Below, in pieces: positions 1-37,128 of a stretch of 37,128 nt of DNA. The DNA is from a virus. The notes beneath the pieces are model-generated. The model made no database searches, was not told the DNA's origin, and saw nothing but the letters and a program-made list of their open reading frames with translations. Position 1 is the stretch's first letter; each line of letters opens with the position of its first letter. Made by a program: the position numbers and the translations under genes. The stretch lies in the IMG/VR virus record IMGVR_UViG_3300023284_002577, positions 1-37,128 of that record; one strand, given 5' to 3'.

Positions 1-144
1 TTCATCAAGTTTTATAAAATCTTCGTATTTTGCATCAAGCGGCATATCGTAATATACATACACTTCAATGTCTTTGTAGATGCATTCGCGATAAAATTCG
101 TAAGCAGTTTCTTCGCAATTTAAATCATCATCGGAATGGCACCA
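1..144. repeat. Terminal direct repeat, copy A (identical to 36985..37128); circularisation overlap
   Basis: Read directly: bases 1-144 (ttcatcaagttttataaaatc...tcggaatggcacca) recur exactly at the 3' end of the window. Unit length is 36984 bp. Confidence 0.95.
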
Positions 145-1096: not shown

Positions 1097-1116
1097 TGTG
1101 GATAAGCTGTGGGTAA
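1097..1116. promoter_or_regulatory. Pair of DnaA-box-like 9-mers (TGTGGATAA, TGTGGGTAA), 11-bp phasing
   Basis: TGTGGATAA at 1097-1105 is the exact reverse complement of the DnaA box consensus TTATCCACA. The second box at 1108-1116 matches 8/9. The pair follows the TAA stop at 1093-1095. Confidence 0.6.
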
Positions 1117-1134
1117 CTCATGTATAATGCATGA

Positions 1135-2547
1135 GTGATCAATCAAACTGTAGACCCTCAAATCATGGCCCCACAACCTGGGCCTCAAACTGCTTTCTTG
1201 GCTACCAAAGCTGATATCGCGATCGGAGGAGGTGCAGCGGGGGGCGGTAAAACTTACGGATTGATTCTTGATCCGATTCGATTTTTCAACCTCGACTATA
1301 TTAATGGGGCAATCTTCCGCCGTCACCAAGAAGATTTAACATTGCCGGGTGCTGTTTGGATTGAGAGTCAAAAAGTCTATGCGCAACTCGGCTTAACGCC
1401 AAATCTTACTAAGCTTCAATATCGTTTTTCCAAAAACTCTTATCTCAAGTTTAGCGGCCTACAATACGAGTACACCGTGCTCAAGTGGCAAGGAGCGCAA
1501 TTAGATTTCCTCGGATTCGACGAGTTGACTCACTTTTCTGAAGATCAGTTCTGGTACTTAATCGGCCGGCTGAGAAGTGTGAGCGGTCAAATAACGCCCT
1601 ATTGTCGAGCGACTTGTAATCCCGAAAAGGGCTGGGTCTTTGAGTTATTGGAATGGTGGATTGATAAAACTACGGGTTATCCAATTCCTGAGCGTAGCGG
1701 GAAGCTGCGTTGGTTGCTTCGGATCGATGATGTTAAATATTGGTTTGACACTAAGCAAGCTGCACTAGATCATCGGGATCGTGTCAAGCTATCGGACAAA
1801 ATACAACCACTGTCCGTGACATTCATTCCCTCTACCCTCAATGACAATCAAATACTGCTCAAAAATGATCCAACATATTATGCAAAGCTTGCGCAACTCT
1901 CCGAAGCTGAGAAACAAAAACTGTTGTACGGCCGATGGTTCTTTGCTCCGACGGGTAAGCTTTTCAAACCCGTGTGGTTTCAGCATTTCGTGATTGAGCC
2001 AGATCAAAAAGAGGTCATCCTCATTACGACGGACACAGCGAGTTCGATCAAGACAGCTAATGATTACACAGTCTTTCAAGTCTGGACACGATCCCAAGGG
2101 AAGATTTATTTGTTGAGTCAAATGCGAGGACGCTTTACCGCAAGCGAGCAGCTTAATCTTCTCACGCATCTCATCCTACATACTAAAGCCCGCTATGTGA
2201 GTATTGAGAAAGCTTCTACGGGTTTTCATTTGATCCAGGAAATTGTGCAAAAGACCGGGGTGATCAAATTAGAAATGGATCGCAACAAAGACAAATACAT
2301 GCGAGCGTACGACATTCAAGAATATGTGGAGCGTGGATATTGTTATCTCAACCCGACGGCAGATTACTACACAGATTTTATTTCAGAGCATGCAGCCTTC
2401 GCGCCTGAGAATAAAAATCGATCTAGCGTCTTTGACGATCAGGTGGATTGTTTTATCGATGCTGTACATCATTTACTTGTGGATAAAATAGGGTATAATC
2501 AAACTCAGATTGATTTAAAACCTCATTATACCTTTCGGAGGAAATAA
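1135..2547 (+). CDS. terL: Terminase large subunit
   Basis: Walker A GGGAAGGGKT, Walker B-like LDFLGFDELTHF, and a C-terminal nuclease-like half. 470 aa from the GTG at 1135; an ATG at 1165 (MAPQPGPQ) is an equally plausible start. Confidence 0.9.
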   Translation: MINQTVDPQIMAPQPGPQTAFLATKADIAIGGGAAGGGKTYGLILDPIRFFNLDYINGAIFRRHQEDLTLPGAVWIESQKVYAQLGLTPNLTKLQYRFSKNSYLKFSGLQYEYTVLKWQGAQLDFLGFDELTHFSEDQFWYLIGRLRSVSGQITPYCRATCNPEKGWVFELLEWWIDKTTGYPIPERSGKLRWLLRIDDVKYWFDTKQAALDHRDRVKLSDKIQPLSVTFIPSTLNDNQILLKNDPTYYAKLAQLSEAEKQKLLYGRWFFAPTGKLFKPVWFQHFVIEPDQKEVILITTDTASSIKTANDYTVFQVWTRSQGKIYLLSQMRGRFTASEQLNLLTHLILHTKARYVSIEKASTGFHLIQEIVQKTGVIKLEMDRNKDKYMRAYDIQEYVERGYCYLNPTADYYTDFISEHAAFAPENKNRSSVFDDQVDCFIDAVHHLLVDKIGYNQTQIDLKPHYTFRRK

Positions 2548-6572: not shown

Positions 6573-6592
6573 TGTGGATAACCTGTGTATAA
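6573..6592. promoter_or_regulatory. Pair of DnaA-box-like 9-mers (TGTGGATAA, TGTGTATAA), 11-bp phasing
   Basis: A perfect box at 6573-6581 and an 8/9 box at 6584-6592, ending 3 nt before the -35 of the scaffold promoter. Confidence 0.6.
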
Positions 6593-6595
6593 GTC

Positions 6596-6624
6596 TTGAT
6601 TTTAGGTTGAGAGGGGTTTATAAT
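6596..6624 (+). promoter_or_regulatory. Sigma70-like promoter (TTGATT-17-TATAAT) upstream of the scaffold gene
   Basis: TTGATT at 6596-6601, exact 17-nt spacer, consensus TATAAT at 6619-6624. Confidence 0.65.
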
Positions 6625-6648
6625 TTCTTCTAACTAATGAGGGAAATT

Positions 6649-7302
6649 ATGGCCGACGAAAACGTAGCAACTCCTGAAGCAGAAACTTTCACTAAAGACA
6701 AAGTTGAGGAAATGATTAAAAATCGTCTCCGCAAACACATGGATGAAAAGACTCAACTCATGGCTGAAAACGAGGCATTGAAAGCGCAGAATGGTGCGGC
6801 TGCTCCGGCTGCTCCTTCGGCTCCCGCTCAAACTCCCAGCGCTCCTCCGGGCCCCCAGGGTCTGACACCAGAAGCTTTTCAAGAAGGTCTTCAAGAAAAT
6901 AACAAACGTCTTCAAGAACAAATGTCTGTCATGCAGGCTAAGGCGCATTATCAAAATACTGTTCAGCGCATGGTCAATGAAGATGAGAAGTTCAAGAAAC
7001 TCACGGATGGAACCAATTCCTTAGGAGTGCCCGAAGCCGTTGGTATTCATATTGTCAATGCTATTTCTCCTGAGAAAGCTAAAAACGTCCTCACTAAATT
7101 GCTGAGCGATGAGGGGATGAATAACAAAATGAGAGTAGAATATATGGAAGGCAGGTTTAATGAGTATTTAAGCAAGCTCCTTACTCAAAATCCGACCGAT
7201 CCGGACGCTGCACCAGCCTCTGTGCCTGATCTTTCCAATCAAAGCGTCAAGGAAGGGCTGACCCCCAACTATGACAACCTGGATAATTACTTAAACCGCT
7301 AA
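6649..7302 (+). CDS. Scaffolding protein
   Basis: Lies between the portal/hub genes and the coat gene. Helical and acidic, with an Ala/Pro-rich linker (AAAPAAPSAPAQTPSAPPGPQG). GAGGG SD lies 5 nt before the ATG at 6649; the ORF also opens at 6637. Confidence 0.65.
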   Translation: MADENVATPEAETFTKDKVEEMIKNRLRKHMDEKTQLMAENEALKAQNGAAAPAAPSAPAQTPSAPPGPQGLTPEAFQEGLQENNKRLQEQMSVMQAKAHYQNTVQRMVNEDEKFKKLTDGTNSLGVPEAVGIHIVNAISPEKAKNVLTKLLSDEGMNNKMRVEYMEGRFNEYLSKLLTQNPTDPDAAPASVPDLSNQSVKEGLTPNYDNLDNYLNR

Positions 7303-7303
7303 T

Positions 7304-7323
7304 TGTGGATATCCTGTGGATAA
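7304..7323. promoter_or_regulatory. Pair of DnaA-box-like 9-mers (TGTGGATAT, TGTGGATAA), 11-bp phasing
   Basis: An 8/9 box at 7304-7312 and a perfect box at 7315-7323, ending 3 nt before the -35 of the coat promoter. Confidence 0.6.
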
Positions 7324-7326
7324 CTA

Positions 7327-7355
7327 TTGACTTTCCTTAAACCTTCCCGTATTCT
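7327..7355 (+). promoter_or_regulatory. Sigma70-like promoter (TTGACT-17-TATTCT) upstream of the coat gene
   Basis: TTGACT at 7327-7332, 17-nt spacer, TATTCT at 7350-7355. It is followed by a leader of about 120 nt. Confidence 0.5.
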
Positions 7356-7483
7356 TTAATTTCCACTACTAGCGTGAGCATTAGCTAGTCGTTTCCGTAA
7401 CGTTAAAACGAGATCTTTGGCTGTTTGGCTGTAATCTCGCCCATTACGAAATATAAACTCGTAATAATCGTTAAGGAACTCCT

Positions 7484-8782
7484 ATGGCTAATACTTTTTC
7501 AACCACCGAATTTGCGTCCAGAACGCTCGGTACTTTTTTATACACTCATTCTAATCTCTTAAAAAACGCTTATATGGGCGTTGACGAATTCCAAAAGAAT
7601 CGTCATGGTGGATGGGCACCGGGTAAAACTATTGATATTAAATTGCCTGGCAACCCTGCGGTTCAGCTAGGAATTGCGGTTACTGCGCAAGATATTACTG
7701 ATGTTACCGCTGCTTATACCTTATCTGATCAAGATGTGTACAACGTAACTCGGGCTATTAACATCCAAGATATTGGTGTTGACGTAGTCGGGGGTAAACT
7801 GGCCTTTACCTCTAATCCTTTTGAAGATCCAAAGAATTCAAAACGCTTAAGTCCTCAAGCTCGTACATTTATTGACCAATATGCGTTTCCCGCAGGTCAA
7901 TCTATTAAATCTAAAGTCGAGAAAACCATTACTCGAAAACTAAAAAATGCTACTTGGTACACGCCAATTGATACGCCTGCTAAGTTGGGCAACGTCAATT
8001 CGTATGACACGATTGCAGGTGCTCAAACTTTGATGGATGAACTCGGTTTTCAAGAAGAATTTCGCTATGCCTATATGAATCCACGTGATTATCAATCCGT
8101 GTCTTCATCTTTGCAGAATATGTTTAATCAGGAAATTAACGAACCTATCACAACCCAAGGTCGTTACAGAAAACGCGAACTTGCTGGTTTTGAATTTATG
8201 AAAGCCAATACTATTGAAAATACGGCCGAAGCGCCTCAATTTTCAGTGAGTCCAACTTTCACTGTAGCCAGTGTGGCAGCCGATGGCAGTACCATTACTT
8301 TCGCAGGTGTTCAGGCTGTTACCAGTGTCATTTTCAATGCAGGCAGTCTGATTTCAATTCCTAGTGTGAATTTGTTTAACAAAGTAAACGAAGTCACTCT
8401 TGAAACTAAATTAGTCGTGGACGTAGCGGTCGATGCGACTGGAGATGGTGCAGGGAACGTTGTTGTGACTTTGTCTGATCCATTGATAGCGGTCGGTGAG
8501 CAAGCTAATGTGAATGCATTGCCAGCCGGCTCTGCTCCTGCGGAATTATTCCCAGCGCATCGTAATAACTATTTCTGTATTCCTATGGGCTATTTGGCTA
8601 ATCCCCTACCTTTGGGTGACATTGCCTCAGCTGATATGAATACTCACAGAAAAGAAAATATGTATATCACTACCTATGTGCAAGGTTTGGTTCTGAGTGG
8701 TGTGAATACCTTTAGGATGTCTTTCCAATGTCCTACTTTGGCTATTCCTCGTTATCTCATTAATCTGCCAAGCGCGATTTAA
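7484..8782 (+). CDS. Major capsid (coat) protein, P22 gp5-like
   Basis: 432 aa. YAYMNPRDYQSVSSSL and RKRELAGFEFMKANTI align with remembered P22 coat segments SYFFNPQDYKKAGYDL and RQVAGFDDVLRSPKL. It follows the scaffold gene. Confidence 0.8.
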   Translation: MANTFSTTEFASRTLGTFLYTHSNLLKNAYMGVDEFQKNRHGGWAPGKTIDIKLPGNPAVQLGIAVTAQDITDVTAAYTLSDQDVYNVTRAINIQDIGVDVVGGKLAFTSNPFEDPKNSKRLSPQARTFIDQYAFPAGQSIKSKVEKTITRKLKNATWYTPIDTPAKLGNVNSYDTIAGAQTLMDELGFQEEFRYAYMNPRDYQSVSSSLQNMFNQEINEPITTQGRYRKRELAGFEFMKANTIENTAEAPQFSVSPTFTVASVAADGSTITFAGVQAVTSVIFNAGSLISIPSVNLFNKVNEVTLETKLVVDVAVDATGDGAGNVVVTLSDPLIAVGEQANVNALPAGSAPAELFPAHRNNYFCIPMGYLANPLPLGDIASADMNTHRKENMYITTYVQGLVLSGVNTFRMSFQCPTLAIPRYLINLPSAI

Positions 8783-9651: not shown

Positions 9652-10062
9652 ATGGCACTTACTTATGACCAAAATACTACACCCTATTTAACCCCGCGAT
9701 TAGAGTTTGATCAGTTAAATCAACCTACTTCTCAAGGATTTGTGGGAGGAACCGATATAGCGCTTGGAACTGGCGATCTTGAGCCTAAATATCGCACTAC
9801 CGGTAACGGTCTTATTTTTTTAGAAGGGCAGATTTTGACCACTGGCGCTATTTCACAAGACGCAATAATACTGACGTTGCCGGATGAGATTGGAAGAAAT
9901 GCAGCGGCTATAAAACTGGTGGCCCAATCAATAGACGCCGGGGGGATTTCCGCCACTTTTGATTTGACGCTCACCGGAAATGCGATAACGGTAACTGAAC
10001 AAGCTGGGATTGCGGATACCACTACCATCATTTTGAGTAATATTATTTACTTCACAGGGTAA
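9652..10062 (+). CDS. Tandem paralogue 3 of 4
   Basis: Start set at the family-conserved MALTYD (ATG 9652, AAGGGG RBS) rather than the ORF-track start at 9616. Confidence 0.75.
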   Translation: MALTYDQNTTPYLTPRLEFDQLNQPTSQGFVGGTDIALGTGDLEPKYRTTGNGLIFLEGQILTTGAISQDAIILTLPDEIGRNAAAIKLVAQSIDAGGISATFDLTLTGNAITVTEQAGIADTTTIILSNIIYFTG

Positions 10063-36828: not shown

Positions 36829-37128
36829 TCAACCTTCTTCAGTTGCTTCAATCCCAGTGAGTTTTTGAGCTGCCCACAAAGTGGTGTAAAATTCGTCACT
36901 GTAGGGTTCTAATTCATCGGGTCTGGGCCATTCGATCGCGCCATCATTGATGACTATTCTATTTATGTATTGTTGTAGAGTTTTTTCATCAAGTTTTATA
37001 AAATCTTCGTATTTTGCATCAAGCGGCATATCGTAATATACATACACTTCAATGTCTTTGTAGATGCATTCGCGATAAAATTCGTAAGCAGTTTCTTCGC
37101 AATTTAAATCATCATCGGAATGGCACCA
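36829..37128 (-). CDS. Acidic 124-aa hypothetical protein, truncated by the window end (5' 75 nt are at 145..219)
   Basis: Same reading frame as the ORF starting at 219 once the 144-bp overlap is collapsed. Confidence 0.7.
   Translation of the reverse strand, partial: WCHSDDDLNCEETAYEFYRECIYKDIEVYVYYDMPLDAKYEDFIKLDEKTLQQYINRIVINDGAIEWPRPDELEPYSDEFYTTLWAAQKLTGIEATEEG
36985..37128. repeat. Terminal direct repeat, copy B (identical to 1..144)
   Basis: Exact 144-nt match to the window start. It lies inside an ORF, so it is not a non-coding physical end. Confidence 0.95.

Follow-up and report, generated by a model that had tools for sequence, protein, structure and literature searches.

Several kinds of DnaA-box use are already known, including boxes at the origins of phages and plasmids, DnaA as a transcription factor, double boxes, stimulation of the lambda pR promoter and the box pairs of T5. 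The closest cellular analogue of the locus described here is the E. coli nrdAB promoter, at which DnaA on two high-affinity boxes stabilises RNA polymerase and thereby activates transcription, while high DnaA-ATP represses it (PMC8203912). Read directly, the nrdA promoter consists of TTATCCACA-aag-TTATGCACT running into TTGCAA-17-TATCTT. In vivo, ChIP-seq has found that E. coli DnaA favours tandem boxes with a spacer of 2-3 bp; binding is lost when either box is mutated or the spacer is lengthened by a base, and the binding unit was concluded to be a dimer (Stringer, Fitzgerald and Wade 2024, PMC11317965). That double box was defined on the E. coli chromosome (16 bound regions), with no phage targets or late-gene promoters described, and the mechanism of activation by DnaA is described as poorly understood (PMC11317965). 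Among phages, DnaA has been reported to stimulate lambda pR (Szalewska-Palasz et al. 1998, as cited in PMC8203912), and the injection-stop region of T5 contains DnaA-box pairs in a phage genome outside any origin (bioRxiv 10.1101/866236).

Here we analyse a stretch of viral DNA of 37,128 nucleotides, referred to throughout as the window, in which double DnaA boxes stand 5' of the promoters of the scaffold and coat genes (Table 1). As at the sigma70 promoter of nrdA, two tandem boxes lie directly against the -35 element of these sigma70-like promoters. However, box orientation is opposite, the window reading TGTGGATAA towards the promoter and nrdA TTATCCACA; the nrdA boxes are separated by 3 bp and overlap the -35 by 1 nt, whereas the window has a 2-bp spacer and a 3-nt gap; and nrdA is a cellular nucleotide-synthesis gene, while the window promoters precede phage morphogenesis genes. 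The tandem 2-3 bp arrangement of the ChIP-seq double box is found at all four sites in the window. The proposed resemblance to lambda pR lies in host DnaA being a positive factor on a phage sigma70 promoter, which links transcription to replication, but pR is an early promoter that serves transcriptional activation of the lambda origin and involves no capsid genes. The DnaA boxes of lambda pR lie downstream of the promoter. The T5 pairs differ in their 3-bp spacing, in lying within an untranslated repeat region, in their proposed role of arresting DNA injection and in having no promoter association.

Genome organisation

An exact direct repeat of 144 nt at the two ends of the window (1-144 and 36985-37128) indicates a complete genome, circular or circularly permuted, of ~36,984 bp. 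It is that of an uncultured, P22-like phage. The scaffolding-protein gene probably begins at ATG 6649 (Shine-Dalgarno GAGGG), not at 6637. The early genes of both strands are nearly all ORFans, and a scan of ~40 small early ORFs with Pfam and PHROG gave essentially no matches. Searches of GenBank phages returned no nucleotide match to the window, and the coat protein was likewise unmatched there; genome contigs yielded no relative to a search with the coat protein or to one with its alignment, and a search of viral contigs with the coat protein gave zero matches. An 18-bp tandem direct repeat, ATATCCAACTTATCTTGG / ATATTCAAGTTATCTTGG, at 29442-29477 overlaps the start of a leftward ORF (29469-29759) and may be an operator.

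Table 1. Positions of the DnaA-box elements, predicted promoters and principal genes in the window.
Feature	Position	Strand	Description
P22-like head module		+	Gene order terS, extra orf113, terL, portal (phrog_156), PF11134-like/Hc3 gene, scaffold-position gene, PF11651 coat gene
Site 1, double DnaA box	1097..1116	+	TGTGGATAA-gc-TGTGGGTAA; begins 1 nt past the orf113 stop codon
Single exact DnaA box	2478..2486	+	Within the spacer of promoter-like TTTACT-16-TATAAT (2472-2499)
Site 2, double DnaA box	6573..6592	+	TGTGGATAA (6573-6581)-cc-TGTGTATAA (6584-6592)
Scaffold promoter, sigma70-like	6596..6624	+	TTGATT (6596-6601), 17-nt spacer, TATAAT (6619-6624); predicted start ~6631
Scaffolding-protein gene	6637..7302	+	Assigned by synteny
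Site 3, double DnaA box	7304..7323	+	TGTGGATAT (7304-7312)-cc-TGTGGATAA (7315-7323)
Coat promoter, sigma70-like	7327..7355	+	TTGACT (7327-7332), 17-nt spacer, TATTCT (7350-7355); predicted start ~7362
Structured coat mRNA 5'-UTR	7360..7412	+	Two hairpins; begins at the predicted start site
Major coat protein gene	7484..8782	+	P22 coat family, PF11651
Tail, injection and lysis genes	after head module, to ~20.6 kb
AT-rich early genes	20.6-29.8 kb	-	Include YqaJ exonuclease, RecT and a PNKP-type phosphatase
Putative replication initiator	29634..30422	+	Weak IncFII RepA-like similarity
Site 4, triple DnaA box	30530..30561	+	TGTGGATAA-ctc-TGTGTACAA-cc-TGTGGATAA
Three iterons	30576..30653	+	TTAAGTGTCYTG; exact copies only here; start-to-start spacing 41 + 22 nt
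AT-rich stretch	30655-30700		3' of the iterons
AT-rich early genes	32-36 kb	+

Double DnaA boxes in the late operon

We identified four double-box elements in the window, all on the + strand and made up of tandem 9-mers in the same orientation that match TTATNCACA / TGTGNATAA; the boxes are 2 bp apart at sites 1-3, and at site 4 the first spacer has 3 bp and the second 2 bp. With as many as 3 mismatches permitted, the 20-nt double-box pattern has 4 matches in the window vs 0.00 in 100 dinucleotide-preserving shuffles, and exact TGTGGATAA 9-mers occur six times, again all on the + strand (6/6). Five of the 9 paired boxes are exact copies of TGTGGATAA and one is TGTGTATAA, identical to oriC R2; the remaining three (TGTGGGTAA, TGTGGATAT and TGTGTACAA) are each one position off the TGTGNATAA consensus, and the commonest variable position among the boxes is the degenerate N of TTATNCACA. 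Set beside the boxes of E. coli oriC read directly (R1, gcccTGTGGATAAcaag; R4, ctacTGTGGATAActct; R2, gagtTGTGTATAAcccc), the window 9-mers are of R1/R4 type (TGTGGATAA) or R2 type (TGTGTATAA), with the 3' C flank included. By sequence, these 20-bp elements are genuine double DnaA boxes.

Other classes of site were considered for these elements and rejected. Sites of phage-encoded late activators (of the Mu C, P2 Ogr and P1 Lpa types) were set aside because the motif is the universal host DnaA box and is common to unrelated phages; a scan of the ORFs for a phage-encoded late activator identified none. CsrA-type RNA sites carry GGA motifs, and the variant boxes TGTGTATAA and TGTGTACAA are without GGA. 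There was no support for pac or cos sites.

At sites 2 and 3 the sequence is exactly as an earlier note on this DNA had described it: a box pair, a gap of 3 nt (gtc, 6593-6595, at site 2; cta, 7324-7326, at site 3) and then a promoter. The centres of the two boxes are 11 bp apart, which places both on one helical face, as that note had also proposed. With the start site set 7 nt past the -10, the boxes of sites 2 and 3 span about -58 to -39, with centres near -54 and -43, and the -35 hexamer is left free. The predicted scaffold and coat promoters match 9-10 of the 12 consensus positions, and may be active without help. Together with site 1, these double boxes fill the late operon's only sizeable intergenic gaps, and each of the three late-region pairs begins 1-2 nt past the upstream stop codon.

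The pair at site 1 lies ~20 bp (about two helical turns) nearer to the -10 than the pairs at sites 2 and 3. It ends 6 nt 5' of a TATAAT (1123-1128) upstream of terL, spans about -38 to -19 in the putative terL promoter and so overlies the -35 region; taken on its geometry, this is a repressor-like or -35-surrogate placement. An extended -10 was rejected at this site, as TG directly abuts TATAAT and is not in the TGnTATAAT register. The -10 of this putative promoter forms the centre of a palindrome, CTCATG-TATAAT-GCATGAG (1117-1137), and the GTG start codon of terL at 1135, which is without a Shine-Dalgarno sequence, coincides with the predicted transcription start. This arrangement could represent an operator, a hairpin or a leaderless mRNA. 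The single exact box further along the late region falls within the terL 3' end, ahead of orf 2550, and its significance is uncertain.

A probable plasmid-type origin

Plasmid origins such as those of R1, P1, F and pSC101 classically have a Rep gene with DnaA boxes and iterons after it. Site 4 resembles these iteron-plasmid and IncFII-type origins in its DnaA boxes, its iterons and its AT-rich stretch, as well as in a neighbouring gene that is putatively Rep-like, and is probably a plasmid-type replication origin; the likeness is confined to site 4, and the Rep assignment comes from weak matches. These matches, three in number, agree in pointing to a plasmid-type initiator: the ORF at 29634-30422 matches PF02387 (IncFII_repA) with E = 0.006, below the curated cut-off, and phrog_4221, 'replication initiation protein', weakly (E = 1e-4), while precomputed annotation places PF02387 on this ORF and on one homolog. 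A search of PDB sequences with the ORF returned no match, and its single-sequence AlphaFold2 model was unusable (pLDDT 45). The triple box lies ~107 nt 3' of the Rep-like ORF. The cumulative GC-skew minimum falls near 31 kb, a position confounded by gene orientation. No partition genes were detected in the window. Just 3' of the probable origin, at 30788-30886 and 31064-31134, sit two tRNA or tRNA-like sequences, namely a tRNA-Ser(CGA) gene (ARAGORN and Rfam) and a second, tRNA-like sequence of 99 nt (Rfam only, 31.7 bits).

Conservation among coat-gene relatives

We compared eight metagenomic relatives with coat identities of 45-59% (L001, L003, L004, L006 and L257-L260). A sigma70-type promoter (TTGACw, 16-17 nt, TAnnnT) stands 5' of the coat gene in 8/8, its position kept throughout, and the earlier note's view that promoters inside such a head operon are unusual does not hold for the coat promoter in this phage family, all of whose members compared here have it. 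Not a single exact DnaA box was found in the eight. Since these relatives have the coat promoter without the boxes, promoters of this class can do without them, and on this comparison the coat box pair is an addition to a pre-existing promoter. At the junction between the PF11134-like and scaffold genes the window has a gap of 66 nt vs 4-16 nt in 7/7 relatives that carry the junction, and the 66-nt scaffold promoter cassette is absent in all seven. By this difference in length, the scaffold box pair and promoter are a cassette inserted uniquely in this phage.

The coat mRNA leader is conserved as well. In most relatives an element of the form yyCCAGTG...CTGCGT...CCGCTTCCATAGCGTAAAA lies 5-6 nt past the -10. 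Its first helix (7368-7373 paired with 7384-7389) shows compensatory changes at 6/6 pairs across nine phages, with 96% pairing vs 18-43% when the partners are slid, and the observed score was reached by 0 of 500 shuffles. A conserved promoter, followed where transcription is predicted to begin by a covarying hairpin, makes a transcript start near 7362 well supported by comparison, and the coat promoter proposed in the earlier note is real in the sense of this conservation. The element matches no Rfam family; it could stabilise the 5' end of the mRNA or serve coat synthesis as a translational operator. The loop consensus of helix 1 is CTGCGTa, and the second, short hairpin has the form CGyT...ArCG. 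In L006, which is without DnaA boxes, three copies of the 11-bp sequence CTATCTGTCCC followed by GTAGCTGCCC/GTAGCTGATAGC occur at 9790-9860, just 5' of the coat promoter region, which suggests that phages of this family combine different upstream binding sites with one conserved promoter.

Recurrence in other viral contigs

The architecture at these two promoters recurs in unrelated phages 5' of morphogenesis genes. An exact scan of IMG/VR with the pattern TGTGGATAA-NN-TGTGKATAA-NNN-TTGAY, that is, a box pair, 3 nt and TTGAY, returned 26 contigs (~19 distinct) vs ~0.01 estimated for random sequence, and at least six independent sites outside the window have the identical 3-nt offset. For intact promoters, the downstream genes at a gap of 3 nt comprise genes for a head scaffolding protein (L013, directly 3' of the portal gene, and L028), a scaffold-position gene between the portal gene and that of a phrog_283 major head protein (L024, the same phage as L025, L029 and L031), terS (L015), the tail sheath of myoviruses (L012 and L017) and a tail protein encoded 3' of a baseplate wedge gene (L017 and L011). 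A pair with a 4-nt gap lies ~590 nt 5' of the terL gene in L192, and one with a 6-nt gap lies within the head module of L154, after a minor head protein gene.

The association depends on both gap and orientation. Distinct sequences with TTGAC after the pair numbered 8, 6 and 7 at gaps of 3, 4 and 6 nt, respectively, vs 0-3 at gaps of 1, 2, 5, 7-10 and 12 nt; the clusters seen at 11, 13 and 14 nt belong to origin families of iteron type, TTGAC being part of the iteron. The mirror orientation was flat, with 1-6 per gap. A proper -10 (16-18 nt) follows at 13/23 sites with gaps of 3-7 nt in the orientation of the window, vs 3/34 at other gaps and 2/11 in the mirror orientation. Thus the fixed 3-nt distance emphasised in the earlier note is constant in this phage and in several others but is not universal, good promoters being found at 3, 4, 6 and 7 nt; among the sequences compared, it is a lineage-level constant. 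Small ORFs or a tRNA lie downstream of some gap-6 promoters, so the design is not restricted to late genes. In an unbiased sample, TTGAY stood at +3 in 0/141 tandem-box sites, which marks the promoter-abutting pairs as a special subset, and the tandem boxes of that sample had no orientation bias relative to genes. Most viral tandem boxes do something else and probably act at origins.

Further instances of paired or arrayed boxes were noted during these searches. On the reverse strand of L013 (4575-4594) an exact double box stops 3 nt short of the portal ATG, too close for a promoter or a canonical Shine-Dalgarno sequence to fit between. Neither L013 nor L024 had a nucleotide match among GenBank phages, and the cultured marine podophages nearest to L013 (VvAW1, Vibrio phage 1.211.A and Thalassomonas BA3) have no box pairs. 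A metagenome scan for a box pair, a promoter and the start of the family UTR matched only an unrelated 1-kb fragment (L266), in which positions 654-715 hold another double-box/promoter instance, TGTGGATAA-cc-TGTGGATAA, a 6-nt gap and TTGACC-17-TAGAAT. A double box followed after 11 nt by TTGACCCTAAATGACCCTAGGGTCA...GGGTCAGGGTCAAAA iterons characterises a widespread family of viral contigs, presumably a common type of origin in phages or plasmids (L146, L155, L156, L158, L161, L162, L164, L167, L179, L197, L198, L210, L214 and L216). The cultured, T7-like Escherichia phage P483 (L264, NC_028822.1) has at least six tandem DnaA-box-like 9-mers at ~37250-37381, in a non-coding stretch of the record 5' of early genes, and T5-like Spc35 has a box pair with a 3-bp spacer in its first-step-transfer region. 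These phages could be experimental handles for DnaA-phage interactions.

Proposed regulation and alternative explanations

We propose, with roughly even confidence, that a host DnaA dimer modulates the scaffold and coat promoters, most probably by stimulating them, and that head output is in this way tied to the replication initiator. A host DnaA dimer would bind each 20-bp double box, and DnaA would be used twice, at the plasmid-type origin with its three boxes, three iterons and RepA-like gene, and in the late operon, where DnaA at -58 to -39 would modulate recruitment of RNA polymerase at the internal scaffold and coat promoters. Stimulation would be the likeliest outcome, as with the two tandem boxes that abut the -35 of E. 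coli nrdA. It would raise the output of scaffold and coat, the two proteins needed in greatest amount, and head-protein output would follow the availability of the initiator that also starts phage replication. What we infer here is that DnaA occupies the boxes, in which direction it regulates and that the coupling is physiological. The activator-like placement suggested in the earlier note stands in part: the position of the boxes at sites 2 and 3 and the same design at nrdA speak for it, whereas the pair over the -35 at site 1 and the L013 pair without a promoter do not, and an activator is only one possible role of the pairs. Also counting against the main reading are the coat promoters of box-free relatives, the opposite orientation of the nrdA boxes, promoters that may work unaided and the 0/141 tandem-box sites with TTGAY at +3.

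A wider form of this proposal, which we advance tentatively and regard as somewhat doubtful, is that the pairs define a recurrent, so far unrecognised class of phage promoter. In such a class a DnaA dimer on a double box 3-7 nt upstream of the -35 would drive high-abundance morphogenesis genes (scaffold, coat, terminase and tail sheath); unrelated podoviruses and myoviruses would have acquired it independently, and it would gate virion production by the initiator that also controls replication, and by the DnaA-ATP or titration state.

DnaA may instead have a negative effect, whether by repressing, by roadblocking or insulating, or by serving as a copy-number timer, which we think unlikely. Bound just past the upstream stop codons, where every late pair begins, DnaA would block read-through or hold the promoters off, and phage replication, with ~10 high-affinity boxes per copy, would titrate DnaA and release late expression. 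Both roadblocking of elongating RNA polymerase by DnaA (PMC11317965) and repression by DnaA (PMC8203912) are documented, and the overlap of site 1 with the -35 region, the promoterless L013 pair immediately 5' of the portal gene and promoters that are already near consensus are in keeping with such a role. At sites 2 and 3, however, the 3-nt gap frees the -35 hexamer and no third, weak box overlies the promoter; nrdA, the closest cellular analogue, is activated from high-affinity boxes; and titration would strip DnaA from consensus boxes last.

It is also possible, if rather improbable, that the late boxes have a part in replication or in managing DnaA and not in transcription, and that their proximity to promoters is incidental, intergenic DNA being scarce. 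They might form a sink for DnaA and in that way shut down host initiation, assist the origin as auxiliary elements or help to organise the genome. The late pairs do occupy the sole sizeable intergenic gaps of the late operon, but the scaffold gap exists only through insertion of the box-plus-promoter cassette. Likewise, most tandem boxes in viral contigs are not beside promoters, many flanking iterons, and cultured phages have box arrays in non-promoter regions (P483 and the T5-like injection-stop region); incidental proximity is nevertheless difficult to reconcile with an identical 3-nt offset at two window sites and at the independent sites elsewhere, or with an enrichment of -10 elements that depends on orientation and gap.

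Recognition of the boxes by a phage-encoded protein of DnaA-like specificity, for example a late activator, which the earlier note had offered as an alternative to DnaA itself, is very improbable: ~40 early ORFs without recognisable function and a small helix-turn-helix-like ORF (26713-26979) leave room for such a protein, and the different 11-bp tandem repeats against the coat -35 of L006 hint at phage-specific regulators in the family, but neither tblastn nor phmmer with E. coli DnaA found a DnaA or domain-IV homolog in the window (best E > 1), the motif is the universal DnaA box with its flanks, unrelated podoviruses and myoviruses share it, and the same boxes stand at the probable origin, where plasmids use host DnaA. 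The same tandem boxes are found in GenBank phages of Streptomyces, Microbacterium, Lactococcus, enterics, Vibrio and Pseudomonas, and in Microviridae, the hosts of motif-bearing phages belonging to Actinobacteria, Firmicutes and Proteobacteria. An identical motif in phages of such different hosts fits a universal host protein and not a phage-specific regulator.

Implications for phage late-gene control

The timing of late genes in small phages that use only the host RNA polymerase is known for few models (Q antitermination; Mu C, Ogr and Lpa). Promoters of capsid and tail genes under the control of DnaA would, if real, re-use the universal replication initiator as a transcription factor and be a host-factor alternative to phage-encoded late activators, sigma factors or antiterminators. 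Full-text literature searches found no description of DnaA boxes at the promoters of phage morphogenesis genes, so this variant is new, within known kinds of DnaA-box use; its architecture is computationally well supported, and its regulatory function is predicted. Given how nearly universal the DnaA box is, cassettes of this kind would be portable from host to host, and this portability fits their apparently independent acquisition, the boxes being absent from all eight coat-gene relatives. Action of DnaA at these sites would add phage targets to the DnaA regulon and link virion output to replication potential, to the growth state of the host and possibly, via DnaA titration, to phage copy number. 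The presence of boxes both at the likely origin and at the scaffold and coat promoters, with a like design in several unrelated phages, suggests that virion production in this phage may be wired to the host replication initiator.
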